A stretch of 64,000 bases of DNA. Source: Escherichia coli (GTDB lineage Bacteria; Pseudomonadota; Gammaproteobacteria; Enterobacterales; Enterobacteriaceae). The notes under the pieces were generated by a model. The model had not been told where the DNA came from. It did not search any database and was given only the letters and a program-made list of their open reading frames with translations. Positions 7,605 through 47,316 of this stretch are shown piece by piece. The DNA lies in NCBI RefSeq assembly GCF_003018115.1, contig NZ_CP027457.1. One strand, given 5' to 3'. How positions within the stretch are numbered: position 1 is the first letter of the stretch; each line of letters begins with the position of its first letter. The position numbers and the translations under genes were made by a program.

Positions 7605-7663
7605 TCCTTGCGGCCGGGCGTGGAAAGCGCTTTCTCACCTCCGGGGGAAATACCATAAATTAA
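7583..7663 (+). pseudogene. 26-codon N-terminal stub of a MobA/MocA-like nucleotidyltransferase
   Basis: GAGGAGGATTC-ATG then MPAPVVLILAAGRGKRF (LAAGxGxRF motif), stop after 26 codons; overlaps paoD end. Confidence 0.4.
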
Positions 7664-7782
7664 GAGAAAAATCTGCAGTAGCCGTTTTAGAAAATCACCT
7701 AAATCATTTAAAAGAGCGACCTACCCATAGTGGGTGCTCATCGCCTTGTGTAACTTATTCAGCAACGCGCGCCCTCGCCGGA

Positions 7783-8976
7783 CTAAAGCGCACCGGCCTT
7801 CTGGCGTGCGGTAACAAAGGTCAGTACGCCCGCGCAAAGGAGCAGCACACTACTCATGGCAAACGTACTCTGCCAGCCAAGGCGGTCAAACACGATGCCT
7901 CCTGCCGTTGATCCAAGGGCGATTGAGAGCTGAATCACCGCGACCATGAGCCCGCCTCCGGCTTCGGCGTTGTCAGGCAACGTACGCGCAATCCATGTCC
8001 ACCATCCGGTTGGCGCGGCGGTGGCCAGCATGCCCCAGAGTCCTAACAGCAGCGAGACCGTCCAGACGTGATGCCCGGTAAGCATCAGACCGATGGCAAT
8101 GACGGCCATCAGTCCGGGTATGGCCATCAGCGTGGGGTAGAATTTTCTGTTGAGAAATGTCGAAACAACCAGCGTGCCAATAAAACCGGCCACGCCGATA
8201 ATCAGCAAAATCAACGACAAGCCTAAGGAATTAACCCGTGTCACCGACTCCAGAAACGGGCGCACATAGGTGAATAGCGCAAACTGCCCCATGAAAAACA
8301 GGCCACAAGCTATCATGCCGACCACAACCATGCGGCGGCTAAATAAGCGGAATACCGCGCCACATGACGTGTGGCTTTTATTCGCATCCATGCTGGGCAG
8401 ACTAATGCACTGCCAGATAAAGGCGACAACCGCCATGGGCACCAGGCACAAGAAAGCGCCTCGCCATCCGACCGTAGCCCCCAGATAGCTTCCCAGCGGC
8501 GCGGCCACGACCGTCGCCAGCGCATTACCGGCGTTGAAAATCGCCAGCGCACGCGTGACCTGATGCTGCGGCACCAGACGAATCGCCGTTGCCGCTGACA
8601 TCGACCAGAATCCGCCAATGGCCACACCAATCATCGCACGACCGACCATATACATCAGATAACTGGTAGCCAGCGCAATAATAAGCCCCGATACGGCCAT
8701 CAGAACCGTCATCCCCAGCAGCAGGAACTTACGATTCATCTTTCCAGCTAGCGTTGAAAGCGTCAGGCTGGTCAGAACAGCCAGCGCGCCGGAGATAGCA
8801 ATCCCCTGCCCTGCAAGCCCCTCCGTCACGCCTAAATCGCGGGTAATCGGCGTGAGCAGGCTGACGGGCATAAATTCAGAAGCAATCAGCACAAACACGC
8901 ACAGGGTCATAGCAAAAATACCGCCCCAGTATGCGTGCTGATGATGAGGTGATGGTGTTTGGCTTAGTGTCGACAT
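7783..8976 (-). CDS. MFS family transporter (12 TM)
   Basis: 397 aa highly hydrophobic, MFS-like helices and loop motifs. Confidence 0.75.
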   Translation of the reverse strand: MSTLSQTPSPHHQHAYWGGIFAMTLCVFVLIASEFMPVSLLTPITRDLGVTEGLAGQGIAISGALAVLTSLTLSTLAGKMNRKFLLLGMTVLMAVSGLIIALATSYLMYMVGRAMIGVAIGGFWSMSAATAIRLVPQHQVTRALAIFNAGNALATVVAAPLGSYLGATVGWRGAFLCLVPMAVVAFIWQCISLPSMDANKSHTSCGAVFRLFSRRMVVVGMIACGLFFMGQFALFTYVRPFLESVTRVNSLGLSLILLIIGVAGFIGTLVVSTFLNRKFYPTLMAIPGLMAVIAIGLMLTGHHVWTVSLLLGLWGMLATAAPTGWWTWIARTLPDNAEAGGGLMVAVIQLSIALGSTAGGIVFDRLGWQSTFAMSSVLLLCAGVLTFVTARQKAGAL

Positions 8977-9051
8977 AGTGAAATTTCACAAAGATCAGGA
9001 TAAAAGCCACCTGCCATAGACCGGTGGCTTTGCATCAATTCAGGAGAGGTT

Positions 9052-10188
9052 TTATTTCAGTTTGGTCTGGAAAAATTGTTCGAACTTCGCGAAAGGTATT
9101 TTTCCGGCCACGTTATCGTACAGGTCCACGTGATTTGCCCCTGGTACCACCACCAACTCTTTGTCTTTACTGCCAACCGCCTTGTAAGCATCTTCAGCAA
9201 AATAGCGTGAATGCGCTTTCTCACCGGTCACAATCAGCGTCGGGATGGTGATTTCACTGGCGTATCTCAACAGCGGCATATTCATAAATGACAGCGGCAT
9301 CGTTGCCGTCCACGCCCCGGTAGAGTTAACGGAACGTTCGTGGAAGCCGCGCGGCATGCGATAGTAGTCAAAGAACTCTTTCAGTACCGGATGAGGATTT
9401 GCCGGCAGCGTTTCTGGCAGAATACGCTCGCCCGCACTGACCTTGCCGTTGCTATCGACATTAATATCATGACCACCGTGAGCGAACGTTCCGCTATGCG
9501 CATCCTTCCAGCGCTGTTCATTCAGATATTGCAGAACAGCACGACGGTCGGCGGTAGAATAACGGTCTTTGCCATCCCCCACACCATGACCCATCGCCCG
9601 GCTCATGTCATACATCACGCTGGTAGCTACCGCTTTAACGCGGGTATCCATCGCCACGTCGTTCAGCGCCATGCCGCCCCAGCCACAAATACCGAGCAGC
9701 CCGATACGGTTGCGGTCTACCTCTTTTTGCAGCCCTAAGAAATCCACCGCCGCGCTGAAATCTTCAGTGTTGATATCCGGTGAGGCGACGTTTCGCGGAT
9801 AGCCGCCGCTTTCCCCGGTGTAAGAAGGATCGAACGCCAGGGTAACAAACCCTCGTTCCGCCAGCGTCTGCGCATACAGGCCGCTGGATTGCTCTTTCAC
9901 CGCGCCAAATGGCCCACTGACCGCAATCGCCGCCAGCTTGCGATCGCCACGGTCTTTAGGCAGGTAAAGATCGCCCACTAAGGTGATGCCATATCGGTTC
10001 GGGAACGAGACTTTACGGTGATCGACTTTCTGGCTCTCGGCGAACGTTTTATCCCATTTATCTGTCATGGACACAGGGGCATTAGGATTGGTTGAATCAG
10101 CATAACTCATTGTCGTGACTCCACTTAATGATGCGAAAAGCAGCATGGTCGGCATCGCGGTTTTTAGCGTTCGGGTGAAGGCTTTCAT
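9052..10188 (-). CDS. Secreted alpha/beta hydrolase, Cys-nucleophile (dienelactone-hydrolase-like)
   Basis: Signal peptide MKAFTRTLKTAMPTMLLFASLSG; nucleophile elbow GICGWGG; start set at internal Met. Confidence 0.6.
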   Translation of the reverse strand: MKAFTRTLKTAMPTMLLFASLSGVTTMSYADSTNPNAPVSMTDKWDKTFAESQKVDHRKVSFPNRYGITLVGDLYLPKDRGDRKLAAIAVSGPFGAVKEQSSGLYAQTLAERGFVTLAFDPSYTGESGGYPRNVASPDINTEDFSAAVDFLGLQKEVDRNRIGLLGICGWGGMALNDVAMDTRVKAVATSVMYDMSRAMGHGVGDGKDRYSTADRRAVLQYLNEQRWKDAHSGTFAHGGHDINVDSNGKVSAGERILPETLPANPHPVLKEFFDYYRMPRGFHERSVNSTGAWTATMPLSFMNMPLLRYASEITIPTLIVTGEKAHSRYFAEDAYKAVGSKDKELVVVPGANHVDLYDNVAGKIPFAKFEQFFQTKLK

Positions 10189-10374
10189 AAAAATCCCCAT
10201 AAAAAACAACAGAGAGATACAGGTTTCCGACGGACAACGCTGCGGTGCTTTACTTTGATGGGGTCATTATAGTGAGCAGAATTAGTGCTGATTAGGGGGC
10301 GATTAATGCTAAGATTAATACCATATTGTTATAAATTAATGCGGAGATTGCCGGCATGAAGGGGGGATGTTTCA

Positions 10375-11259
10375 ATGGCGAAAAGGGAGAACTACAACGA
10401 GCTGTACCTGTTTATGCAGGTGGTGCGGGAAGGCAGCTTTACCGCAGCGGCTCAGCGGCTGGGTCTTGCTCAGTCAGGAGTCAGCCGTTCTGTTCGCGAG
10501 CTTGAAGAAAGGCTGGGTGTCCAGCTGCTAGTGCGCACCACGCGTAAACTGTCGCTGACACAAGCAGGCGAGCAGCTCTACCAGAAGACGGCATCTGGAT
10601 TTGAAATGTTAGATCTTGGGCTTGCCACACTGGCGCACTATCGAGAGACGCCCTCCGGCACGGTGCGTATCAATGCCAGCCAGCACGCGATTGATAAATG
10701 CCTGCTGCCAAAGCTGGCGGTATTTAAACAGCGATATCCTGATATCCGGCTTGAACTGATAAATGAGAGCCGGTTCGTCGATATCATCGAGGAAAGATTC
10801 GATGCAGGTGTCCGCCTGGGGCCTGAAGTCGGCCAGGGTATGGTCGCGGTACGCATCACGCCCGATATGGAGATGGCAATTGTGGGGACTCCGGAACATT
10901 TTCGTCGTTATGGTTTTCCGCAAACCCCGGCGGATTTAAAGGCGCATCCCTGTATCGCCTATCAGTTTGCCGACGGCAGCGTATACCAGTGGGAACTCAA
11001 TCAGGATGATAAAAAAATCACTCATCGCCCTGAAGGGCAATGGGCCCTATCCGACAGCTATATGGAAGCAGAAGCCGCCCGGCTGGGCCTCGGATTGGCC
11101 TATGTTCCTGTTGAACTGGTCGCGGATGATTTAGAACACGGTAACCTTATCAGGGTGTTGCAGCGTTACAGCCTGCGAATGGAGGGATTGTTTCTCTATT
11201 ACCCTCATCGCAACGTCTCCCCCGCTCTGCGGATGGTCATTGATACATTGAAAATCTGA
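10375..11259 (+). CDS. LysR-family transcriptional regulator
   Basis: 294 aa; N-terminal HTH FTAAAQRLGLAQSGVSRSVRELEERLG; divergent from hydrolase-MFS genes. Confidence 0.85.
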   Translation: MAKRENYNELYLFMQVVREGSFTAAAQRLGLAQSGVSRSVRELEERLGVQLLVRTTRKLSLTQAGEQLYQKTASGFEMLDLGLATLAHYRETPSGTVRINASQHAIDKCLLPKLAVFKQRYPDIRLELINESRFVDIIEERFDAGVRLGPEVGQGMVAVRITPDMEMAIVGTPEHFRRYGFPQTPADLKAHPCIAYQFADGSVYQWELNQDDKKITHRPEGQWALSDSYMEAEAARLGLGLAYVPVELVADDLEHGNLIRVLQRYSLRMEGLFLYYPHRNVSPALRMVIDTLKI

Positions 11260-11968
11260 ACGTTAACAACGACCGACTCTTCACTGTGCAATATTGTGTC
11301 AGGTAGTCACTCTGCGTTCAATTCCAGGGGCCGCTTTGAGCGAGAAAGAGCGGACTTATCTGTATAAGGGGACTATCCAGCAATGGAGATCACCCAAAAG
11401 AAAAAACTACCTGGCTCCCTCAACAACCTTCATCCGGGAATTTAGCCTCAATCAACATTTTTATATCTGTCAGGTTACTTCATTATGAAAACCGATCAAT
11501 ATCGTTGTTTTTGTAGTAATAATAGAATACGCGTATTTATTCCTCCATTTCTATTAATAACAGCCATAAACTGTTCACTTCACTGATATTTAAAATATGC
11601 ATCCTTTTCCTGCTTTTCAAGTTGTTCAGCGGCGTAAGAAAACGTATTAAATATGAATTCGACGATTTAACCATTTCTGTCTGATTGGTAATCATCTGTG
11701 ATTAATGCTGGTCTATTGATTACGCCAGCATTAACCGCTTAGGGATGTATTCTTCCTGATCATATACAGCCCTCGAAAAAGAGAGAAAATAAAACTGTGT
11801 CCAATATTACTCTACCACTCCAGACCGAAGCATCGGTAGAATTAGCAGAACGACTGGTACAGAAGGTGGGTATAGCGTCATTTGTCGGGCATTCCATTGC
11901 CATCATAATGATAATTTTGAATCAATAGACGTGCTTCTTGATCATGTCTTAAAATTATACCATGAGCC

Positions 11969-12199
11969 TTATGAAGCATCATTTTTACTGACTGGTGTTA
12001 ACTTTGCTATCATATAAACTCTGTTCTTAAAAAACGCGCCCAGAATTTTATATGATTTCCCTTGTTTTTCTGCCTGTAAAGAAATTTCTTTTTCAGTGCT
12101 GTCAATAGTTGAACCGACGGCAGTAATCGTTTTGGCGACGCTACTGAATGATAATAAAGACAGTGCAACCACAACAATTAAAGAACAGATAGTATTCAT
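11969..12199 (-). CDS. Small secreted protein, DUF1471 (BhsA/McbA/YdgH-like) candidate
   Basis: Signal peptide MNTICSLIVVVALSLLSFSSVA then ~55 aa mature domain; start at internal Met of ORF 11969..12247. Confidence 0.45.
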   Translation of the reverse strand: MNTICSLIVVVALSLLSFSSVAKTITAVGSTIDSTEKEISLQAEKQGKSYKILGAFFKNRVYMIAKLTPVSKNDAS

Positions 12200-12412
12200 G
12201 CTAATTCTCCTGACAATTAAGAGGATGAGTTTTATATATAAAGGCATTAAACATGAGTCATATTTACTTCCTGTGAAAATAATCTTTCTGTAATTAAACC
12301 TTCATCTCCTTCGGGGTGAGCAATACATAATGCATCTTGCTATGAAAAACACAGGGATATATAAATCTTCCTTCTGACCTATTTAATAAAACGTGAATGT
12401 AAAAGTTATTCT

Positions 12413-13135
12413 TCAGTTTGCAGATGCAGTGGGTCTGATGGTAATTTCGGTTGTATCAACGCTTTCGGGAGATTCAATAATATGCCTTACCGCACGGGCA
12501 ATATCCGCAGGTTGAAGTGCAACAGAACGGTAGGAGTCCATTGCCTTCATGGTTTCCACATGGGTAATGGTTGAAGCCAGTTCACTTTCGACAACGCCAG
12601 GATTTACGCAGGTCACACGGATTTTCGAGCTTTCCTGCCGTAAGCCATCAGAAATAGCCCGTACTGCAAATTTTGATGCACAATAGACTGCGCCTGTGGG
12701 CACAACAGAAAGGGCACCAATAGAACCAAGATTGATTATCTGACCGGAACCCTGTGCTTCCATCACCGGAAGTACAGCGCCAATTCCCCACAGTACACCT
12801 TTGATATTCACGTCAATAGTGAGCGCCCATTCATCTTGTTTTCCTGCTGCAAGCGGTGAAAGCGGCATAACGCCCGCATTATTGATAAGAACATCAACTC
12901 GCCCCCAGCTATCCAGCGCTGCTTGCACGAAATCGGCCATGGACTGTCGGTCTGTGACATCCAACTCCCGCGCTTTAGCAATTCCTCCTGCGCGGCAGAT
13001 TTCGGTTGCAATGGCTTCGATACGCTCAACTCTGCGTGCTCCCAGTAAAACCTTTGCACCTGTCGTTCCAAGCTCTCTGGCAATACCTTCCCCAATACCA
13101 CTTGATGCGCCGGTAATTAATATGACCTTATCCAT
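12413..13135 (-). CDS. Short-chain dehydrogenase/reductase (SDR)
   Basis: TGASSGIG NAD(P)-binding motif, YCASK catalytic motif; start at MDKVILITG. Confidence 0.85.
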   Translation of the reverse strand: MDKVILITGASSGIGEGIARELGTTGAKVLLGARRVERIEAIATEICRAGGIAKARELDVTDRQSMADFVQAALDSWGRVDVLINNAGVMPLSPLAAGKQDEWALTIDVNIKGVLWGIGAVLPVMEAQGSGQIINLGSIGALSVVPTGAVYCASKFAVRAISDGLRQESSKIRVTCVNPGVVESELASTITHVETMKAMDSYRSVALQPADIARAVRHIIESPESVDTTEITIRPTASAN

Positions 13136-13233
13136 TACGTTCTCCTTCAAATGTGTTCGGAGAGAGAATAGAACTTTATGATTGGTTCCAGTATCCTGCT
13201 TTCAATGTACTCAGTGGTTAGCGGCATTAAACA

Positions 13234-14133
13234 ATGAAAATCGATCTTAATCTTTTACCCATTTTTATCGCGGTAGCAGAAGAGAGTAATTTTAGTAAAG
13301 CCGCCGCACGACTGGGCGTTACCCGTTCAGCGGTCAGTCAGGGAATAAGACGTCTTGAAGATGCATTCGGGACAATGCTTGTAATGCGGACCACGCGCTC
13401 AGTTAATTTGACGGAAGCGGGAGAACGGCTGCATAAATCGTTGTCATTACCTTTATCCGGTATTGAGGCAGCGTTCGAAGAGATGGTCTCTGACCATGTA
13501 CCACGTGGACATCTCAGAATCGCGGTGACGTCGATAGCAGAAGAATTTCTTTCAGGTCCGCTAATCGCTTCGTTTGCAGCTGCCAATCCAGCCGTTACGC
13601 TTGATATTGTTGTCACGGATGAGGAATTCGATATCGTTGCCGCAGGTTACGATGCTGGCGTAAGGCTCGGAGAGGTCATTGAAAAAGACATGATTGCTGT
13701 TCCCCTTACCGGCAGGCAGCGTGAAATGGTCGTTGCCTCTCCCTCCTATCTCGCAGCCAACAGCACACCTGTTCATCCGCGTGAACTTGTGAATCATAAG
13801 TGTATCGGCTGGCGTCAGTCCCCGGAGGTTGCGCCTTATCGCTGGCCATTTGAAGAAAACGGGAGAGCTTTCGACCTTGCGATTGAACCGCAGATTACGA
13901 CTAATGATCTGCGTCTGATGTTGCGGCTGGCTCTTGCCGGTGGAGGAATAACAATTGCCACTCAGGAAACTTTCAGGCCGTATATTGAAAGCGGTAAGCT
14001 TGTATCTCTGCTTGATGACTTTCTTCCACAATTTCCGGGCTTCTATCTGTATTTCCCACAGCGTCGCAATATTGCACCAAAGCTCCGCGCCCTGATTGAC
14101 CACGTCAAGGAATGGCGGCAGCAATTGGCTTAA
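13234..14133 (+). CDS. LysR-family transcriptional regulator (possibly the intact counterpart of K-12 yagP fragment)
   Basis: 299 aa; HTH FSKAAARLGVTRSAVSQGIRRLE; divergent from SDR. Confidence 0.8.
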   Translation: MKIDLNLLPIFIAVAEESNFSKAAARLGVTRSAVSQGIRRLEDAFGTMLVMRTTRSVNLTEAGERLHKSLSLPLSGIEAAFEEMVSDHVPRGHLRIAVTSIAEEFLSGPLIASFAAANPAVTLDIVVTDEEFDIVAAGYDAGVRLGEVIEKDMIAVPLTGRQREMVVASPSYLAANSTPVHPRELVNHKCIGWRQSPEVAPYRWPFEENGRAFDLAIEPQITTNDLRLMLRLALAGGGITIATQETFRPYIESGKLVSLLDDFLPQFPGFYLYFPQRRNIAPKLRALIDHVKEWRQQLA

Positions 14134-14259
14134 ATGTCTGCACCTACATTGCCTGATGTCAGAACAGTATTTTGATTAATTGCCAGGGTTACAATGGCAC
14201 AAATACGGCACAGGAGGAAACGTGGTGTATTTAAATATGGGGTAACTACTTGATTTAAA

Positions 14260-14335
14260 TGGTGCCGATAATAGGAGTCGAACCTACGACCTTCGCATTA
14301 CGAATGCGCTGCTCTACCAACTGAGCTATATCGGC
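14260..14335 (-). tRNA. thrW: tRNA-Thr (anticodon CGU)
   Basis: Reverse complement reads GCCGATATAGCTCAGTTGGTAGAGCAGCGCATTCGTAATGCG...TTCGACTCCTATTATCGGCACCA; cloverleaf with CGT anticodon and CCA end. Confidence 0.9.
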
Positions 14336-14449
14336 CCTGAAAGGACATGTTCACGAACGTGAATCACGGTGGACAAGGTTAAAACTAACCGGGCGATGCG
14401 TCAATGGCCTTGTGAATCAAATGGCTACTTTTGCATCACCCGGTTTTAT

Positions 14450-15703
14450 TTACGCACGAATGGTGTAATCACCAATGCCGATCCACTTGTAAGTGGTCAG
14501 TGCTTCCAGCCCCATTGGGCCACGCGCGTGGAGTTTTTGTGTGCTTACCGCCACTTCCGCGCCCAGTCCAAACTGGCCGCCGTCGGTAAAACGCGTAGAG
14601 GCGTTAACGTAAACAGCGGACGAATCCACTTCGTTAACAAAACGCTGGGCGTTGCGCATATCGCGGGTCAGGATCGCATCGGAGTGTTGCGTGCCGTGTT
14701 CACGAATATGGGCGATGGCATCGTCAAGATCGCTGACGATTTTGACGTTCAAATCTAATGACAGAAACTCATCGTCATACTCTTCGGCTTTAACCGCCAC
14801 CACCTTCGCAGGGCCTGTCTGCAACTGCGCCAGCGCAGCTGCATCTGCGTGTAACGTCACGCCGCTTTCCGCCATTTGTTTGCTTAATGCGGGCAGGAAG
14901 CTATCGGCGATGTTTTTATTCACCAGCAACGTTTCTACCGTATTACATGTGCTCGGACGCTGGGTTTTCGCGTTGACGATCACTTTTAATGCTTCAGCGA
15001 TCTCTGCACTTTCATCAACGTAAATATGGCATACGCCTATACCACCAGTGATCACCGGGATCGTCGACTGCTCGCGGCACAGTTTATGCAAACCAGCCCC
15101 GCCGCGCGGGATCAGCATGTCGATGTATTTATCCATACGCAGCATTTCACTGACCAGCGCACGGTCAGGATTATCAATCGCCTGCACGGCACCCGCCGGT
15201 AAGCCACAGGATTTCAGGGCGTCCTGAATCACCGCCACCGTTGCAGCGTTAGTGCGACACGTTTCTTTGCCGCCGCGCAGGATCACTGCGTTACCTGTTT
15301 TCAGGCACAGCGAAGCGACATCAACCGTCACGTTCGGGCGCGCTTCATAAATCACGCCAATAACCCCCAGCGGTACGCGACGACGCTCAAGACGCAGGCC
15401 GCTGTCCAGTACGCCGCCATCGATTACCTGCCCCACCGGATCGGCGAGGTTGCACACCTGGCGCACATCATCGGCAATGCCTTTCAGCCGTGCGGGCGTC
15501 AGTGCCAGACGGTCAAGCATCGCTTCGCTAAGGCCATTGGCTCGCGCGTCAGCAACATCCTGGGCGTTAGCGTTGAGGATGATTTCGCTTTGTGCTTCCA
15601 GTTCATCGGCGATTTTTTCCAGCACACGATTTTTTTCGCGGCTGGAGAGTTGCGCTAATTTATACGAGGCTTGCTTCGCGGCAATGCCCATTTGTTCCAG
15701 CAT
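14450..15703 (-). CDS. proA: Gamma-glutamyl phosphate reductase
   Basis: 417 aa; [19 protein letters not shown]...; synteny proB-proA-thrW. Confidence 0.95.
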
Positions 15704-15714
15704 CGGCCAGCTCC

Positions 15715-16818
15715 TTAACGGGTAATCATGTCATCACGGTGAACGGCAACCGGGCCGTATTCATATCCCAGTATTGCATCAATTTCTTGCGAGTGGTGCC
15801 CGGCAATACGGCGTAATGCATCGCTGTTGTAACGACTGACGCCGTGGGCGATATCGCGACCTTCGAGGTTGCAAATGCGGATGACTTCACCACGCGAGAA
15901 ATTGCCAGTCACGCTTTTAATGCCTTTCGGCAACAGGGAGCTGCCGCGTTCAAGAATGGCGGCGGTTGCCCCTTCATCTACCGTGATTTCACCCGCAGGC
16001 GGCGCACCGAAAATCCAGCGTTTACGGTTTTCAAGCGGAGTCGCCTGGGCATGGAACAGCGTACCGACGGAAATGCCTTCCATCACATCACCAATGACGC
16101 CCGGCTTGCTGCCCGCGGCAATAATGGTGTCGATACCCGCACGGCAAGCCACGTCCGCGGCCTGCAATTTGGTACTCATGCCGCCAGTTCCGAGGCCTGA
16201 AACGCTGTCACCGGCAATCGCGCGCAGTGCGTCATCAATGCCGTAAACATCTTTAATCAGTTCTGCCTGCGGATTGCTGCGCGGGTCAGCGGTATACAAA
16301 CCTTTTTGATCGGTCAGTAACAACAGTTTATCGGCACCCGCCAGAATCGCCGCCAGCGCAGAAAGGTTGTCGTTATCGCCGACTTTAATCTCTGCCGTAG
16401 CGACAGCATCGTTCTCATTGATTACCGGAACGATATTGTTATCGAGCAACGCACGCAGGGTGTCGCGGGCGTTCAGGAAGCGTTCACGGTCTTCCATATC
16501 AGCACGAGTCAGCAGCATTTGCCCGACGTGAATGCCATAAATCGAAAACAGCTGTTCCCACAGTTGAATCAGTCGACTCTGCCCTACCGCCGCCAGCAGT
16601 TGTTTCGAGGCGATAGTCGCTGGCAGTTCCGGGTAACCCAGGTGCTCACGTCCGGCGGCGATCGCGCCCGACGTCACAATAACAATCCGATGCCCGGCGG
16701 CATGTAACTGCGCGCACTGGCGAACAAGTTCAACGATATGGGCACGGTTCAGGCGGCGCGATCCGCCTGTTAGCACACTGGTGCCGAGTTTTACCACCAG
16801 CGTCTGGCTGTCACTCAT
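15715..16818 (-). CDS. proB: Glutamate 5-kinase
   Basis: Start set at [16 protein letters not shown] (367 aa); ORF extends upstream to 16905 but canonical start is internal. Confidence 0.9.
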
Positions 16819-17006
16819 GATTCTCTGCCATTCAATTTTAGGAAAAATGATATCAAACGAACGTTTTAGCAGGACTGTCGTCGGTTGCCAACCATCTGCG
16901 AGCAAAGCATGGTGTTTTGTTGCGCGGGATCAGCAAGCGTAGCGGCAGTTGTTTACGCTTTCATTACAGATTTAATAAATTACCACATTTTAAGAATATC
17001 ATTAAT

Positions 17007-17028
17007 CTGTAATATATCTTTAACAATC
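17007..17028 (+). promoter_or_regulatory. Pho box (PhoB binding site) in phoE promoter
   Basis: CTGTAATATATCTTTAACAATC matches two direct CTGTCATA-like repeats about 80 bp upstream of phoE ATG. Confidence 0.6.
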
Positions 17029-17105
17029 TCAGGTTAAAAACTTTCCTGTTTTCAACGGGGCTCTCCCGCTGAATATTCGCGCGTTAATTAAAATCAGGAA
17101 TGAAA

Positions 17106-18161
17106 ATGAAAAAGAGCACTCTGGCATTAGTGGTGATGGGCATTGTGGCATCTGCATCCGTACAGGCCGCAGAAATATATAACAAAGACGGTAATAAACT
17201 GGATGTCTATGGCAAAGTTAAAGCCATGCATTATATGAGTGATAACGACAGTAAAGATGGCGACCAGAGTTATATCCGTTTTGGTTTTAAAGGCGAAACA
17301 CAAATTAACGATCAACTGACTGGTTATGGTCGTTGGGAAGCAGAGTTTGCCGGTAATAAAGCAGAGAGTGATACTGCACAGCAAAAAACGCGTCTCGCTT
17401 TTGCCGGGTTGAAATATAAAGATTTGGGTTCTTTCGATTATGGTCGTAACCTGGGCGCGTTGTATGACGTGGAAGCCTGGACCGATATGTTCCCGGAATT
17501 TGGTGGCGACTCCTCGGCGCAGACCGACAACTTTATGACCAAACGCGCCAGCGGTCTGGCGACGTATCGGAACACCGACTTCTTCGGCGTTATCGATGGC
17601 CTGAACTTAACCCTGCAATATCAAGGGAAAAACGAAAACCGCGACGTTAAAAAGCAAAACGGCGATGGCTTCGGCACGTCATTGACATATGACTTTGGCG
17701 GCAGCGATTTCGCCATTAGTGGGGCCTATACCAACTCAGATCGCACCAACGAGCAGAACCTGCAAAGCCGTGGCACAGGCAAGCGTGCAGAAGCATGGGC
17801 AACAGGTCTGAAATACGATGCCAATAATATTTATCTGGCAACTTTTTATTCTGAAACACGCAAAATGACGCCAATATCTGGCGGCTTTGCCAATAAAACT
17901 CAGAACTTTGAAGCGGTCGCTCAATACCAGTTTGACTTTGGTCTGCGTCCATCGCTGGGTTATGTCTTATCGAAAGGGAAAGATATTGAAGGTATCGGTG
18001 ATGAAGATCTGGTCAATTATATCGATGTCGGGGCTACATATTATTTCAACAAAAATATGTCAGCGTTTGTTGATTATAAAATCAACCAACTGGATAGCGA
18101 TAACAAATTGAATATTAATAATGATGATATTGTCGCGGTTGGCATGACCTATCAGTTTTAA
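17106..18161 (+). CDS. phoE: Outer membrane phosphoporin PhoE
   Basis: [21 protein letters not shown] signal peptide, C-terminal ...VAVGMTYQF porin terminus. Confidence 0.95.
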
Positions 18162-36685: not shown

Positions 36686-37822
36686 TTACGAAAGCCCGCT
36701 CCCCGCAAGGACTGACGCCAGATAGTTTCTGTCCATGGCTGCTTTTCGCATCTTACGTCTTAACCCTGCCTTGAATACCTTATCATTCGTCAAAATATTA
36801 ATAGCAATGTGCCGTATCCCTGAAAATAATTCCGCTGCATTTCCTCTTCTTATTCTGCAGTCGTCTTCATTCATTACCACGTCCAGGCGCCAGTGCAGCT
36901 TATTTTCCACGTGCCAGTGATTTCGGTTCGCTGTGGCGAACTTCTCTGCAGTTAAATCAGCAGAGCTGATATAATATCTGACCGTCATTTCGGGTTCTTT
37001 CTTTTGTTCTGCTATTATTGACCGAAAGGAGACTGCCACGCATAATTTCTTCAGCCCTTTCCATTCAAACGTGAAATCAATAAGTTCATCAGGGACATCG
37101 CAAACAATATGAAGACGGATTTCTTCTCTGCCGTGACTCTTTTCACTGATTGCGTAACTGTCATGCTCTGGATTATTTAATTCTTTCAGCGGAAATTTTT
37201 CCTCAAAGGCTTTATTTAGCCGCCCCTGGTTTCCTTTTACCGCGAATAAATAATCACCTCCCTGTTTTTGTATCTTCTCTGCAATATCTTTCTGGCAACC
37301 CATCGCATCAGTTGTGATGATTTTTCCTTTAATATCCAGCATGTTAAGAAGTTCTGGGATAGCTGTAATCTCATTAGATTTCTCATCCGTCCTGATCTGT
37401 CCGATGACCAGACTGTGCATTGTTGAGAACGCACTAATGACATGAATCGCTCCCCTGCGGCGACTCTTGTCATAAGAGTGCCGGAGCGTTTTTCCATCAA
37501 TTGCAATGACGTCTTTATCATCTGAAGAATGGCAGTCACGCATCCAGTTAATAAAGCACTCGTGAAATTTTGCAGGACTGATACAGGATACAACTCTGGC
37601 AATGGTATCGTGAACAGGAATACCATTTTCAAAATCACCATATTGCTTCAAAAAATCGAGATGTGTTTCCCCAAAATCCTCTATATCTTCCCAACCCTCT
37701 GCACCAGAAATGACGGCACAAATAGTCAACAGTAGAATATCTGACAATTTATGTTCTACTTTCCAGGCTTGTCTGTAATCGGGGATAATAGAAATATGTT
37801 CCATCAGTTTTTTAAGTTCCAT
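36686..37822 (-). mobile_element. ISAs1-family transposase (H-repeat-associated protein), complete
   Basis: 378 aa [60 protein letters not shown]... DDE transposase typical of Rhs-associated H-rpt. Confidence 0.9.
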
Positions 37823-38290
37823 TTTGTTCTCCTTATTTATGCAAGGAGTATTTGATCATATATAAGCTATGAAAAATAGTTTTAGGTAATAAGGAATATC
37901 TCAATTATTGAACATTTAGCGCGAATTATTTAGTACAAAAAGTGTACTTCTGATGACCTTTCCCTGCTCCAAAGTCTTCTAAAATCAACAATGTAGACTC
38001 TTAATTATATTTATCAACACAATAATCTATCCTATTACTATCTTGACAAGAGAGAACCGTTTTTTATTTAAATATATGATACACATCATTAAATATATAA
38101 CCATACTTTTTCATAAGGCAATCTAACTTAGCTCTTAAATCACCAAAACCCATCACACCATAACATCTAATAGCCATTGCCACACGTCACCATGGATTTA
38201 TTTCCACCTGCAATTACTTCGTCCTAACTTTAATTTAATCTCAAGAAGCATTAAGATCTCAATAGCGAGCTTAATACTTCTTGAATAATA

Positions 38291-38668
38291 TCACTCCTGA
38301 CCAAAATTTTTCCACACTAATGCATGAGACTTTGATTTGTCACCCAGAAATTTACTTACATCTTGCCAAAGTAAAGAATTGCTATCGGTCGCAGTGACTA
38401 TTGCCTCTATAAGCCCTGTAGCTACAACTGTGGCCAATTCATCATCAAGCGAGACCATACCATCTTCGACATGTTTAAATATTTTTTCTCTTTCAATATC
38501 CCCCATTTCATAAAAATTTTTTACAATCGTTTTTCCAACCTGAGAGAACAACATAACCACCGGTGGCGTTTCTGGATGCCAGTATTCATTAGCTAATGAG
38601 ACTGTCTCAGACAAAACAGTGGAAAATGATGCCATTTTTTCTATATAACTAGCAATATATTGGTTCAT
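38291..38668 (-). CDS. Putative Rhs immunity protein (RhsI), family unassigned
   Basis: 125 aa acidic ORF whose ATG shares one base with the Rhs stop (TAATG); AT-rich like the Rhs CT. Confidence 0.7.
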   Translation of the reverse strand: MNQYIASYIEKMASFSTVLSETVSLANEYWHPETPPVVMLFSQVGKTIVKNFYEMGDIEREKIFKHVEDGMVSLDDELATVVATGLIEAIVTATDSNSLLWQDVSKFLGDKSKSHALVWKNFGQE

Positions 38669-41600
38669 TACTTGCCTCCCAAAGCATTCTGTAAATCCTG
38701 AAGAACGTTTTCTGCTGCTGCTCGATCCCCTGGAGATGCTGTTGGATTCTTATCCAACCAATCCTGTAAAGCCCTTGTATAATCCTGTGCTTTCAATACA
38801 TGTCCTCTACCACCAACTTTTTCACCTGTGGCCAATTCATAACGAACAGCATCTGCTGTGCTTCCACTTCCTACTTTTGCATTTGGCCGATAAAGATCGT
38901 CTATAATATTTTTCAAATTTGAATCTGTAACGTCGGGTTTTCCCATTTTCTGTCGCAATTCATCTTTATACCGTTCATGCTGCATACGATCCCTTGCGCT
39001 ATTCTCATCTTCTGGTCCCCATCCTCCCGGGCTTCCCGTACTGCCGCCGGCCAGGCAGTTCTTCTCTTCATCCGTCAAATCCTTCCCAACATTCGGCTGA
39101 CTCCCTGACGAATTATCATTCTCATGTGGGCTATCTAAAGGACAACTACTGGTCCAGTAACACATTTCAGCCTGAGAATTTATTAACTGCCCATCGCTCA
39201 GAGCCTTCCCGGCACGCCCATCATTAGCGAGAAGGTCATATCCCATTGGCCCAGCGACCACAGCCATTGCTCCAAGAGCAGGGGCAGCAGACGCCATAGC
39301 CGCCGTGACTGCATCAAAAGTCGCCGCCCCACCCGAAAGTAACGCCCCCCCAAATTCTGTTCCTGTTACTGTTGTGGCAGAACCAAGAACCAGTGTCTCA
39401 CCAGACAACCCAAGAGGATCCCCCCGCTGCACCGGGTTCAGCGGATACGCATACAGGTTCCATCCCCCCTTCAGCCCAATGGGATCCTGGGTGATATAGC
39501 GTCCCTGCAACGGATCGTAGTACCGGTTCCGGTTATAGTACAGCCCCGACTCCTCATCATACTGCTGCCCCGGCAGACGGAGTGACTGTTGAAGGTGCTG
39601 CGCGCTGGTTTCGCCCAGCAGGTTTCCCCACTCGTCATACTCCCCCTGCCACGCCGTTTCCCCTTCCGGGCTGATGAGCGCCAGCGGCAGTCCCCGGTGG
39701 TCGCAGTGGTAAAGATGAAGTTTCCTCTCCGGGATGTATTCCGCCTCCAGCTGTGCGGCCATCTGCTCCGCCGTCAGCCCGCACTGCGCAAGCCATGCCT
39801 CACTCTCCGCACTCACCGCTCCCGCGCGCAGTTCCCGCTCCAGCCTCCCCAGCATCACCGACAGCTCCGCCGGTAGCGTCACACCCGTGTCCTCCTGCAA
39901 CACCTCCGCCAGGCTCCGGTGCCGCGCCTTCGCCTGTTCGCCATTCTCTGTTTCGATTCTCAGGAGCGGCGTGAAGCTCCCCGGCTGGTATACCGTCTGG
40001 ATACGCGTGGTGCCGGTCTGTATCGTCGTCAGCCTGTCACCGTCCCACCCGTACCATGTCACCTCCGGTTTACGCGACAGCGACATCCACCCCGTCAGGT
40101 CACGCTCCCGCCGCCATACCCGTTTTCCCGTCCGGCGGCCCAGCGGGTCATAGAGGTACCGGCTCTCCACCTGTGGTTCGCCGTGCTGTATCCGCGTGTA
40201 GAACACCAGGCGGTGCTGGCTGTCGTAGTGATAGTGGTGGGTGCGCTCGTCGTGCATCCGGATAACCCCTTCCGGGATACGGTCCGTCTTCTCCGCCAGC
40301 CTGCCGTATTCATCGTGGCGGTAGACATAGTGCGCATCCTCCGCGATGCGGTTATCCGGCCACGCCGTGAGCGTGCTGTCCGGGTGCAGTTCCGGGTCCG
40401 GCAGCCGGTTTCCTGCCGGGTCCGTCGCATACGGGATATCAATGTCCAGGTTCGCTGCCGTGGTGTGGACGCCCGTCAGCCTTCCCGTGCCGCTGTAACG
40501 GTACTCCCGGCTCTCCTGCGGGCCGCTGATGCGGATTAGCTGTCCGTTGTCGTTCCACGTATACTCACGGTCAAGCTGCGGAAGGTTCAGGTGCCTGCTC
40601 CGGAGCTGGCCGCTGGTATTCCAGGCGGTGGCAAGTTCATATGCCTCCCCGCCGAAGCTGCGGGCCGTCTCACGGTGCAGCCGGTCCCGCGTGTACTCGA
40701 CCAGCGGCGTTCCGCCCAGCTTCATCCCCGCAAGATAACCGCTGCCATACGTCAGCCACTCCACCGGCGGCAGACCGTCCGGCTCCTGACGGGTCGCCAG
40801 CCCCTGTTCGCTGTACGCATGCCCCGTCTCATGCTCCCACAGCATCTCCCCCGTCTCCGGGTTCTCCACCGTCTGCCGTTCGCCCGTCAGGCGGCCTTTA
40901 TCGTCATAGCCGTAGTGGACCGACACGCGGTGGCCTTCACTGGTATGGCTGAGGGTGGTTAACCACCCGTGCTCATCATACTGCCACTGCTCTGCCGGGT
41001 CGCCGTTCACCGTCCGGTGCGTGATGCGGTCCGACGCATCGTAGTGCCAGAGGGTGATAAGCCCCTCGTCTTCACTCTGCGTGAGTTTTCCGGTCAGGTC
41101 ATAGTGGTAACGTTGCGTCCGGCCGTCAAAACCGCGCTGTTCAGTCAGCCTGTCCACCGGGTCATACCGGAACGTGGACTGGCTGCCGTTCTCGTTGGTC
41201 AGCACGGTGATGCGCCCGGCAGCGTCATACCCCATGCTGCGCGTAAGACCGCCTTCCGTCACACTCACCGGACGCCCGTGTTTATCATATTCGATGGTGC
41301 TGCGTTTACCGTCCGGTGATATCGTTGCTGTCAGGTCGCCTGCGGCGCTGTACTCATAACGGATTTCACGCCCCTGCGCATCCTTCTGACTGACCAGTTG
41401 CCCACGCGGGTTATAACTGCTGTAAGTGCTGATGCCTTCCTCCCGGTGAACGGCGATTTGTTGACCGTACCAGTCATACTCATACCGCGTCGTGTACCCC
41501 GAGCAGTCCGTGAAGGCCCGAAGCTGACCGTACCGGTTTCGCGTTATTCTCCGCGTCACCCCGGTTCCGTCTTCCACCGCGCCGGGCAGGCTACTGCGGG

Positions 41601-45599: not shown

Positions 45600-46118
45600 T
45601 TATGCTTCCAGCGGTGCGCGCCAGTCGTCGGCACCGGAGGTGCCAGATTTGACGTGTTCCCATTCAATTTTGCGGTAGGCCAGTGAAACTTCGAGCAACT
45701 GGGTGAACTCGCGTTTCGCCGGGTCCTGGCAATGCGGCATATGCAGTTTCATATCGACAATCGTCGAATCAGTCAGGCGGGTAGTGAAATAATGCTCCTG
45801 TTTGCCTTCCACAGAGGTACGCCACCAGTGAAGTTCAGTGGTTGGCAGCATTTCGCCGGAGGCCAGTGCGTTGTACATCAGCGGAACCGCTTTGTTCAGC
45901 GCCACGGTAAAAATGAAAGGCTTGTGAGCACGCTGACCCGCAGGCTGACCGGACTGAGGATCGGTCGGGACAGTAACGTTATGCAGGAATTCCTGCACCA
46001 GCATCTCGTCTTCGTGCCCCTGCACATAGATGTTGCCGACAGAATCAGCGGTAAATGCACCTGCAGTAATATTTCCCTGGGTCTGACCAGTGATGGAGAT
46101 ATAACACGGTGTTGGCAT
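45600..46118 (-). CDS. hcp: Type VI secretion tube protein Hcp (TssD)
   Basis: 172 aa MPTPCYISITGQTQGNITAGAFTADSVGNIYVQGHEDEMLVQ. Confidence 0.9.
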   Translation of the reverse strand: MPTPCYISITGQTQGNITAGAFTADSVGNIYVQGHEDEMLVQEFLHNVTVPTDPQSGQPAGQRAHKPFIFTVALNKAVPLMYNALASGEMLPTTELHWWRTSVEGKQEHYFTTRLTDSTIVDMKLHMPHCQDPAKREFTQLLEVSLAYRKIEWEHVKSGTSGADDWRAPLEA

Positions 46119-46412
46119 TTGTAAACTCCTTGTTAACGTGGTTAATTACTACTTACAATGACCTGCCGTTAATCCCAGACAGGCAGATGCAGCTCACTTC
46201 ACGGAACCGCATCATTTTTCAGTATTTTTTACATACAAACCGAGCTAGAATTTACGGTTGTCGTAAAAACTATTTTTAAAATCATTAAATCTCTTATTCA
46301 GCAATAACTTAATAATATATATCTGGATAACCATACCCAACTGTTCAAAGTCCGTATTGCCTCCATAAAATGGCCAAAGCTGAATCATGAATAAATATTG
46401 TATTTATCCTTT

Positions 46413-46432
46413 CTGAATTATCATTTTGATAA
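46413..46432. promoter_or_regulatory. Fur-box-like AT hexamer repeat in hcp/tssB divergent control region
   Basis: GAATTATCATTTTGATAATT resembles GATAATGATAATCATTATC. Confidence 0.3.
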
Positions 46433-46815
46433 TTTTTGAGATATTCCTTAAAAATACCCACTTAATCAATCACAAAACAAATATATAAACAAGCAATCAT
46501 TAGATTAGCTTATGTTTAATAAAATTATTATACAATTCAATAAGATGAATAAAAAACCCTATATTTAAATTATTGCCATAATACACCTGACGCGAATTAC
46601 ACAGGTTCACACAATCTATTTAACGCTTGCAGAATACCCCTCTTTACGATCGATAAAAAGTCCTTTTCTTATTTATTTTGAAGCGTAAAATGCGGGGTGA
46701 TGAAGGAGTGGTGATTTTATTTTCACCGCCATTAGGGCGGCATTGCCGATATTTTTTTGCGGTACAAATATGCCGTGTTCATGGCCTGTACGAGATAACA
46801 TGACGGATCACTTTT

Positions 46816-47316
46816 ATGAGCAAAAAATTTGAAGGCAGCGTCGCGCCTCGCGAGCGTATTAATATATCGTATGTCCCAAAAACAGATGGCCAGACGGCTG
46901 AAGTGGAACTTCCGCTTAACATGCTCGTTGTCGGCGATACCGGAAATACGCAGGAAACATCCCCACTGGATGAACGTCAGGCAGTTTCCGTTAACAAGCA
47001 CAATTTCGGTGCAGTGATGGCTGAAGCAGCCATTGGCCTCAATTTTACCGTCCCTGCCACACTGAAGGGAAGCACAACGGACGATGAGCTGAATGTGGCG
47101 CTGAATATCAAGTCACTGGATGATTTTTCACCAGATAGCGTGGCCCGGCAGGTTCCGGAAGTGAATAAATTGCTGGAACTGCGTGAAGCACTGACTGCAC
47201 TGAAGGGGCCGATGGGTAACCTTCCGGCATTCCGTACCCAGCTCCAGGCATTGCTGGAAAATGAAGAGTCCCGCGAGCAGTTGCTCAAAGAAATCGGCCA
47301 GGTGAGCAATAAATAA
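46816..47316 (+). CDS. tssB: T6SS sheath small subunit TssB (VipA)
   Basis: 166 aa MSKKFEGSVAPRERINISYVPKTDGQTAEVELPLNMLVVGD. Confidence 0.9.
   Translation: MSKKFEGSVAPRERINISYVPKTDGQTAEVELPLNMLVVGDTGNTQETSPLDERQAVSVNKHNFGAVMAEAAIGLNFTVPATLKGSTTDDELNVALNIKSLDDFSPDSVARQVPEVNKLLELREALTALKGPMGNLPAFRTQLQALLENEESREQLLKEIGQVSNK

Follow-up and report, generated by a model that had tools for sequence, protein, structure and literature searches.

This work concerns an AT-rich stretch of the Escherichia coli chromosome (contig NZ_CP027457.1) that lies between two genes and encodes one small protein. We analysed it within a window of 64,000 nucleotides, and all positions refer to that window. The stretch, hereafter called the spacer, occupies positions 11260-12412 and is exactly the gap between the end of a LysR-family gene, LysR1 (10375-11259, plus strand; open reading frame (ORF) and RefSeq annotation), and the end of a gene for a 240-aa SDR-family oxidoreductase (12413-13135, minus strand; Pfam adh_short, E 7e-54, and RefSeq annotation). 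Its G+C content (GC) is 0.366, against 0.530 for the whole 64-kb window, 0.539 for LysR1 and 0.495 for the SDR gene, and only 1.6% of the 1153-bp segments within the 64 kb are equally AT-rich. The first-pass annotation had described a markedly AT-rich spacer with a single plausible gene. Both points hold, and the coordinates are exact: the spacer contains one functional gene, to which a truncated ykgR pseudogene has to be added, while the remaining small ORFs are interrupted in related lineages or evolve with a ratio of nonsynonymous to synonymous substitution rates (dN/dS) of about 1. Very probably, the spacer is a mosaic that joins one working unit (11969-12412, minus strand) to the wreckage of older genes. 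The small gene adds an unannotated member to a known family, which we argue below to be DUF1471, and it stands in a hot spot of genome erosion.

The small gene (11969-12199, minus strand) is a 76-codon ORF that corresponds to ECs_0307 in O157:H7 Sakai. A Shine-Dalgarno sequence, AGGAG, is placed at 12207-12211, 7 nt ahead of its ATG. RefSeq calls the gene as a 92-aa version that starts at 12247 and labels the product 'hypothetical protein'. We aligned six Escherichia loci; the upstream ATG chosen by RefSeq is ATA or ATT in three of them, while the codon that starts the 76-aa version is ATG or GTG in all six and the Shine-Dalgarno sequence is also conserved. Since the RefSeq start is not conserved and the shorter one is kept, 76 aa is the right length, in agreement with the length of about 76 aa first proposed.

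A recurring cassette and the origin of the AT-richness

The small gene is not a lone gene but the third gene of a recurring cassette, composed of a LysR gene, a divergent gene for a 240-aa SDR protein, a gene for a short DUF1471 protein and a gene for an 81-aa Atu4866-family protein. The four-gene cassette was found in loci L008-L011 (2035-4582), L024 (1152-3579) and L025 (1032-3581), some of them on mobile islands. In the window, the small gene comes right after the SDR gene, in the same orientation, and the regulator gene LysR2 (13234-14133, plus strand; ORF and RefSeq annotation), a LysR-family gene that represents the full-length yagP, is separated from the SDR gene by 98 bp and transcribed divergently from it. 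Between the window and the other cassette copies, amino-acid identity is 83-89% for the SDR protein and 82-86% for the LysR protein, but only 50-58% for the small protein. For instance, P0096 and P0097, about 50% identical to the small protein, are encoded in four-gene cassettes of this kind, whose SDR and LysR proteins are 82-84% identical to those of the window. The window copy has no Atu4866 gene. In the other copies that gene occupies the position of 11764-11968, which in the window is an unconstrained spacer downstream of the small gene, 80-81% identical to cryptic-clade Escherichia loci. A tblastn search for an Atu4866 remnant in 11400-12000 returned only scattered, non-collinear matches (E 0.2-100).

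The composition of the tract had been taken to suggest horizontally acquired, H-NS-bound DNA. Several observations would fit a tract of recently acquired foreign DNA silenced by H-NS: GC is 31-38% over about 900 bp; the small gene is accessory, being present in 436 of the 5,426 complete E. coli genomes (8%), many of them O157:H7; the locus lies next to thrW; and the paralogous cassette (82-84% identical) travels on mobile islands. However, the same genes occupy the same chromosomal site in cryptic-clade Escherichia, where they have diverged in step with their neighbours: identity to the cryptic-clade loci is 87-89% for the small gene, 92-96% for the LysR and SDR genes beside it and 75-84% for the surrounding non-coding DNA. 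The shared site and the in-step divergence argue for an old residence followed by loss. Moreover, in every cassette copy GC is 32-36% in the small gene and 27-35% in the gap preceding it (134-251 bp in the other copies), as compared with 45-52% in the SDR gene. The small gene and its leader have thus long been AT-rich, and their composition is not the mark of a recent arrival. As for the left half, its AT-richness would be a remnant of genes that were already AT-rich, namely the truncated ykgR, the scar left by ykgM-ykgO and an orphan hairpin. No site for the H-NS high-affinity motif TCGATAAATT was found within the spacer with up to two mismatches, a point against the silencing of the tract by this route, and H-NS binding is plausible from composition alone. 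Horizontal acquisition is therefore backed by the accessory distribution, the position beside thrW and the mobile paralogues, and opposed by the orthologues at the same place in other Escherichia and by the low GC of all cassette copies. We consider a recent acquisition possible, but rather doubtful, and favour a mosaic long resident at this site.

It is tempting, although we think it unlikely, to see the cassette as an undescribed, horizontally mobile envelope-stress module, whose AT-rich leader, kept in every copy, might be H-NS-gated. On this reading, the small protein, which evolves 3-4 times faster than its cassette partners, would be exposed at the surface or face host or phage, where selection would favour its diversification, and its role would be tied to the substrate of the SDR protein.

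The small gene and its product

The 76-aa precursor is predicted to consist of a 22-residue signal peptide (cleavage at SVA-KT) and a 54-residue basic domain of 5.9 kDa with an isoelectric point of 9.6. Its N-terminus is hydrophobic (mean Kyte-Doolittle value 2.8 over residues 4-18) and is followed by SVA-KT; homologues show AxA-Q/K where this protein has SVA-K. Residues 3-19 are helical in the AlphaFold 2 (AF2) model. The predicted core has the order beta-alpha-beta-beta, with a three-stranded antiparallel sheet packed on one long helix, and the mature protein begins at the first core strand (K23-TITAV). The canonical DUF1471 fold has an additional N-terminal beta1 strand and a short helix (PMC4092069). 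Those extra elements, which go with a precursor of about 90 aa, are not present in the small protein.

The first-pass annotation had called the product a DUF1471-like signal-peptide protein and had proposed to check it with the family's hidden Markov model (HMM). The direct check came out below threshold: PF07338 matched the small protein with E 0.038 and 14.5 bits, under its gathering score of 27, aligning residues 24-55 with model positions 8-40 of 55. The NCBIfam model of BhsA (NF047859) gave E 7.6e-5 and 23.2 bits. As its equivalog cutoff is 90 bits, the identification of the small protein as BhsA is rejected, despite one JGI label to that effect. A word-seeded search found only Escherichia and Shigella proteins, without Pfam matches. 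Homology to the family was instead obtained through intermediates. We built an HMM from eight orthologous mature domains (the orthologue profile) and searched it against 1.84 billion representative proteins, of which 43 matched at E<=1e-3. Nearly all of these are 68-73 aa long with a signal peptide, and they share the motif xTVSATxSTLDxAExKIAxQAxxxGASYKIxxAxxxNRVxMTAxL. In the resulting family alignment, 27 of the 34 sequences match PF07338 at E<=0.01, and ten relatives scored singly on that model range from 13.8 bits up to 33-38 bits. The highest range is reached by P0099, P0102 and P0103 (33-38 bits, cutoff 27), from Enterobacter, Klebsiella aerogenes and Pectobacterium, which their sources name DUF1471 or YdgH/BhsA/McbA-like and which the orthologue profile matches at E 1e-9 to 4e-8. 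The orthologues whose source is named belong to E. coli, Shigella, Escherichia sp. and one genome given as E. fergusonii, and the relatives to Enterobacter, Klebsiella, Pectobacterium and Atlantibacter; all fall within the Enterobacteriaceae/Enterobacterales, to which DUF1471 is restricted. When PDB was searched by sequence, the orthologue profile found nothing and the wider family profile reached only 2ma4 and 2noc, at E ~1. Two other relations were rejected: BLASTP against K-12 RclB produced no alignment, and the idea of a YkgL homologue, which came from the position of the small ORF relative to ykgO-like DNA, failed because the sequences are unrelated.

Judged by these profile links and by the predicted fold, the description of the small protein as a divergent, short, core-only member of the DUF1471 (YhcN/BhsA/McbA) family is essentially correct. 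We file it as core-only because the protein and its 70-aa relatives lack the canonical beta1 strand and short helix. The original assignment thus survives by way of the intermediate family and the modelled fold, and not by way of the sub-threshold Pfam match. The small protein would be exported to the periplasm in a Sec-dependent manner and cleaved after SVA. By analogy with BhsA, YhcN, SrfN and RclB, it might then act as a small envelope-associated factor in stress or surface properties.

The leader of the small gene (12200-12412, minus strand) extends over the 213 bp that separate it from the SDR stop codon, has a GC of 31% and holds the AGGAG at 12207-12211. It is 75-80% identical to the cryptic-clade loci. 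Folding of 12270-12412 revealed no RNA structure beyond that of shuffled sequence (z +1.17), and a scan found no terminator-like site between the SDR gene and the small gene. In all, the promoter and terminator scan gave 7 promoter-like sites, where 5.1 are expected, and 0 terminators. The small gene is probably expressed from a promoter of its own in the leader, by read-through from an SDR promoter under LysR2 control, or by both.

The small ORF is a real gene under purifying selection and evolves fairly fast. Its dN/dS is 0.10-0.58 over the six loci and 0.13-0.22 against the two cryptic-clade loci, which are the deepest comparisons. Its identity to the cryptic-clade loci (87-89%) also exceeds that of the non-coding DNA at its flanks (75-81%). 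It is intact in 6 of the 6 loci compared, the domain core of its product is invariant among orthologues, and contigs with intact alleles far outnumber those with frameshifted ones.

Some observations weigh against the reading of a working gene for an exported DUF1471 protein. No promoter upstream of the small gene passed the consensus scan. A literature search returned no transcription, protein or phenotype data for ECs_0307, and another on ECs0306-0308 and Atu4866 gave nothing useful. The n-region of the signal peptide (MNTICS) contains neither Lys nor Arg. Frameshifted alleles (61-62 aa, ending ...NHIKFWARFLRTEFI) occur in several lineages, as a minority, and the O157:H7 gene has a GTG start and a weaker Shine-Dalgarno sequence. 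Finally, the Pectobacterium relative has a looser LysR-SDR-small arrangement on an integrative element, with SDR and LysR proteins only ~24% identical to those of the window, so that its neighbourhood could be a coincidence.

The uncharged n-region, the AF2 helix at residues 3-19 and the label 'putative membrane protein' that one source gives to an allele could mean that the N-terminal stretch is an uncleaved signal anchor, which would make the product a single-pass inner-membrane protein with a periplasmic DUF1471 core. We consider this unlikely, since SVA-K fits the -3,-1 rule and falls where the homologues have AxA-Q/K, and since the signal peptides of two DUF1471 proteins, SrfN and YahO, have been shown to be cleaved (PMC4092069). 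A cleaved signal peptide is thus preferred. Less probable still is that the small ORF is a decaying relic without present function and the spacer junk at a rearrangement junction. The frameshifted alleles, the start varying between ATG and GTG with the Shine-Dalgarno sequence weakened in O157:H7, the presence in 8% of complete genomes after loss by at least four different deletions or replacements, and the low identity of the small protein between cassette copies (50-58%, versus 82-89% for its neighbours) would all be expected of a relic, but they are outweighed by the low dN/dS of the deepest comparisons, as against ~1 for the adjacent open frame, by the integrity of the gene in all six loci and on far more contigs, and by the invariant domain core that orthologues share.

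Remnants of older genes and erosion beside thrW

The left ~700 bp of the spacer begins with the 3' flank of LysR1 (11260-11488, GC 0.44), which is specific to the E. coli arrangement. This segment is unrelated to the DNA found upstream of ykgR elsewhere (29-41% identity to L012, L014 and L016, as for unaligned sequence), and E. coli strains in which the right half of the spacer is gone still share it. It is followed by a ykgR pseudogene (11489-11557, plus strand) that retains codons 12-33 of the 33-aa YkgR (KPINIVVFVVIIEYAYLFLHFY, then the stop codon). The first 11 codons are gone, and an in-frame TGA at 11486-11488 stands directly upstream of the remnant, so no intact 33-codon ORF is present. 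The NCBIfam YkgR model (NF041474 / PF28062) matches the remnant with E 1.2e-9 and 37.6 bits, for a cutoff of 40. We checked five annotated E. coli loci with the LysR1-adjacent junction, and in each of them RefSeq lists the remnant as a pseudogene, 'incomplete; missing N-terminus'. An intact 33-aa ykgR, convergent with the small gene, is found at this position in L012-L016, which are cryptic-clade loci plus one labelled E. fergusonii. Homology between the window and those loci stops within ykgR, at about 11489, and the DNA to the left is unrelated LysR1-side sequence.

Comparison with K-12 by blastn indicates what lay to the right of ykgR. Window positions 11489-11622 match K-12 locus positions 17210-17077 (ykgR and downstream DNA) at 86.6% identity, and 11624-11763 match 16401-16261 (the final codons of ykgO, then the gap up to ykgL) at 74.5%. 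Between these two segments K-12 has 675 bp (16402-17076), holding the ykgM promoter, ykgM and most of ykgO, for which the window has no counterpart. According to the alignment, the scar of this deletion (11558-11650, plus strand) joins DNA downstream of ykgR to the C-terminal codons of ykgO at about 11622/11624. On these alignments, the window copy and its orthologues in other lineages are the ykgR-ykgM-ykgO locus after the loss of ykgM-ykgO. The literature on ykgR concerns the canonical locus only.

An inverted repeat, TTAATGCTGG-N13-CCAGCATTAA (11702-11734, plus strand), is predicted to fold as RNA with -21.6 kcal/mol (z -4.25). Unlike an intrinsic terminator, it has an AT-rich stem (10-11 pairs) and lacks a T-run behind it. 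The K-12 copy of the hairpin lies 52 nt after the ykgO stop codon and is followed by TTTTCC, and a compensatory change from C-G to T-A preserves its stem. Because of its position and of this K-12 counterpart with a U-tract, we read the hairpin as a terminator: it is the orphaned ykgO terminator, with the U-tract lost. The block around it, 11623-11763, is conserved like coding sequence. It is 87-89% identical to the cryptic-clade loci, versus 78-81% for its flanks, and 98% versus 93% within E. coli, although ykgM-ykgO is gone.

The first-pass annotation had also suggested that the long untranslated stretches could carry a small RNA or a regulatory region. This found no support, as these stretches turn out to be the ykgR pseudogene, the deletion scar and the orphan hairpin. 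A search of Rfam 15 (E<=10) gave chance-level matches only, the best with E 1.5 and all far below gathering scores. A functional non-coding element centred on the hairpin, either a small RNA or a protein-binding palindrome, would account for the conservation of the block after the loss of ykgM-ykgO and for a stable stem maintained in the K-12 paralogue by a compensatory change, but it is improbable given that the K-12 counterpart already explains the hairpin as a terminator, that neither an Rfam match, nor a nearby promoter above shuffled expectation, nor a terminator-like site in the window copy was obtained, and that there is one compensatory pair only, in five sequences.

Regarding the remaining ORFs, 11763-11897 (minus strand, 45 codons) is open and free of indels in all six Escherichia loci, with a dN/dS of 0.9-1.26 in deep comparisons, and is probably open by chance. 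ORFs 11797-11928 (plus strand) and 11537-11695 (minus strand) were rejected as genes, the former on account of stops in other lineages and the latter on account of stops or frameshifts.

The locus beside thrW has been repeatedly deleted or overwritten in E. coli, K-12 included. In the window, LysR2 is followed by thrW, a tRNA-Thr (CGT) gene predicted by ARAGORN (14260-14335, minus strand), and by proA. The tRNA gene borders the cassette and is an integration hot spot, occupied by CP4-6 in K-12, by Sp1/Sp2 in Sakai and by further islands. Of the 5,426 complete E. coli genomes, 426 have the whole spacer. K-12 MG1655 lacks 6.1 kb of the window (7659-13794), comprising the genes for an MFS transporter, an alpha/beta hydrolase, LysR1 and the SDR protein, together with the spacer and the N-terminal two thirds of LysR2. 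What survives of LysR2 in K-12 is a C-terminal fragment, yagP, which matches residues 188-299 at 98%. In other strains, distinct deletions or inserted islands have their breakpoints within the spacer.

At the other extreme, 11160-12512 matches O169:H41 enterotoxigenic E. coli strains (e.g. F9792) at 100% identity. In F9792 (L001 8975-9373), hypothetical-protein genes come after LysR2, whereas the window (14134-14450) continues directly with thrW and proA; the window thus stems from another strain, or from an allele lacking this island. Further observations were made in related loci. In cryptic-clade L012 (5595-10231), the genes after ykgR encode a LysR protein, three aldo-keto reductases and an alcohol dehydrogenase; fragments of this cluster match K-12 DNA by ykgP and over ykgQ (L002 17088-21573), and the pseudogenes of the K-12 ykgP/ykgQ region may be remnants of an L012-type cluster. 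In L016 (GCA_048109445.1, labelled Escherichia fergusonii), an intact ykgR adjoins the small gene and proA is 98.2% identical to that of the window. Such an identity is closer than we would expect between two species, and suggests either a wrong species label or a recent exchange of the region. At the canonical locus of O157:H7 Sakai (L023 345190-345358), ISEc8 lies directly beyond ykgM and a ykgR-like match lies on the far side of this insertion sequence, so the canonical ykgR region has also been rearranged there. Elsewhere in the window, other strongly AT-rich tracts are found at ~16800-17250, ~46000-47200 and ~36800-39000, the last being the most AT-rich region of the window (GC 0.34-0.40).

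The significance of these results is modest. They provide a family assignment and a correct start codon for a gene that RefSeq leaves as a 'hypothetical protein' in the 436 genomes that carry it, and they indicate that DUF1471 has a short, core-only branch largely missed by the Pfam model. The placement of the small gene in a regulator-oxidoreductase cassette offers a concrete handle for finding its inducer. Moreover, the history of the thrW region (ykgR truncation, loss of ykgM-ykgO, the yagP fragment of K-12) is useful for pseudogene annotation in this hot spot. We regard the findings as correct but ordinary, and not surprising to a specialist.

Comparison with known families and loci

The DUF1471 family (PF07338) includes BhsA (YcfR), McbA, YhcN, YahO, RclB (YkgI), YbiJ and BsmA of E. 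coli, and SrfN, YahO and YdgH/SssB of Salmonella. Like these, the small gene encodes a short protein from enterobacteria, with a predicted Sec-type signal sequence at its N-terminus, with the same predicted core of a sheet plus a long helix and with profile-level homology through intermediates. It differs from the canonical members in having a 76-aa precursor instead of one of ~90 aa, and in a mature domain that would begin at the strand equivalent to the canonical beta2. It also falls outside the ten K-12 paralogues, and K-12 has deleted the locus. In genetic context, the small gene resembles rclB in rclABC/rclR, according to the K-12 annotation, since it adjoins a redox enzyme and a divergent regulator.

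The short DUF1471 or YdgH-BhsA-McbA-like proteins of 68-73 aa from Enterobacter, Klebsiella aerogenes and Pectobacterium (e.g. WP_248243945.1, WP_262830294.1 and WP_349916017.1) share with the small protein the length class, an architecture of predicted signal peptide plus core only, and 40-50% identity, and some of them are also encoded in a LysR-SDR-small cassette. What sets the Escherichia protein apart is that its C-terminal tail (PVSKNDAS) is longer, that its n-region lacks Lys and that it scores lower on the Pfam model. In Enterobacter, the gene for the short version has a core location between lpxH and purE, with normal GC, and another relative is encoded beside fimbrial genes.

The closest paralogue is P0149 (73 aa, 'MULTISPECIES: hypothetical protein [Enterobacterales]'), from islands of E. 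coli, Klebsiella and Atlantibacter. It is 58% identical to the small protein, its SDR and LysR partners are 89% and 86% identical to those of the window, and its gene and leader are AT-rich as well. Unlike the window copy, it is followed by the Atu4866-family gene, and its island surroundings include genes for CbeA, RadC, antirestriction or Abi functions, whereas the window copy occupies a chromosomal thrW-proximal site. As for the remnants on the left, 11489-11763 is homologous, at 74-87% identity, to the K-12 ykgR-ykgM-ykgO locus, which encodes YkgR and the alternative ribosomal proteins L31B and L36B; the window copy, however, encodes none of the three proteins.

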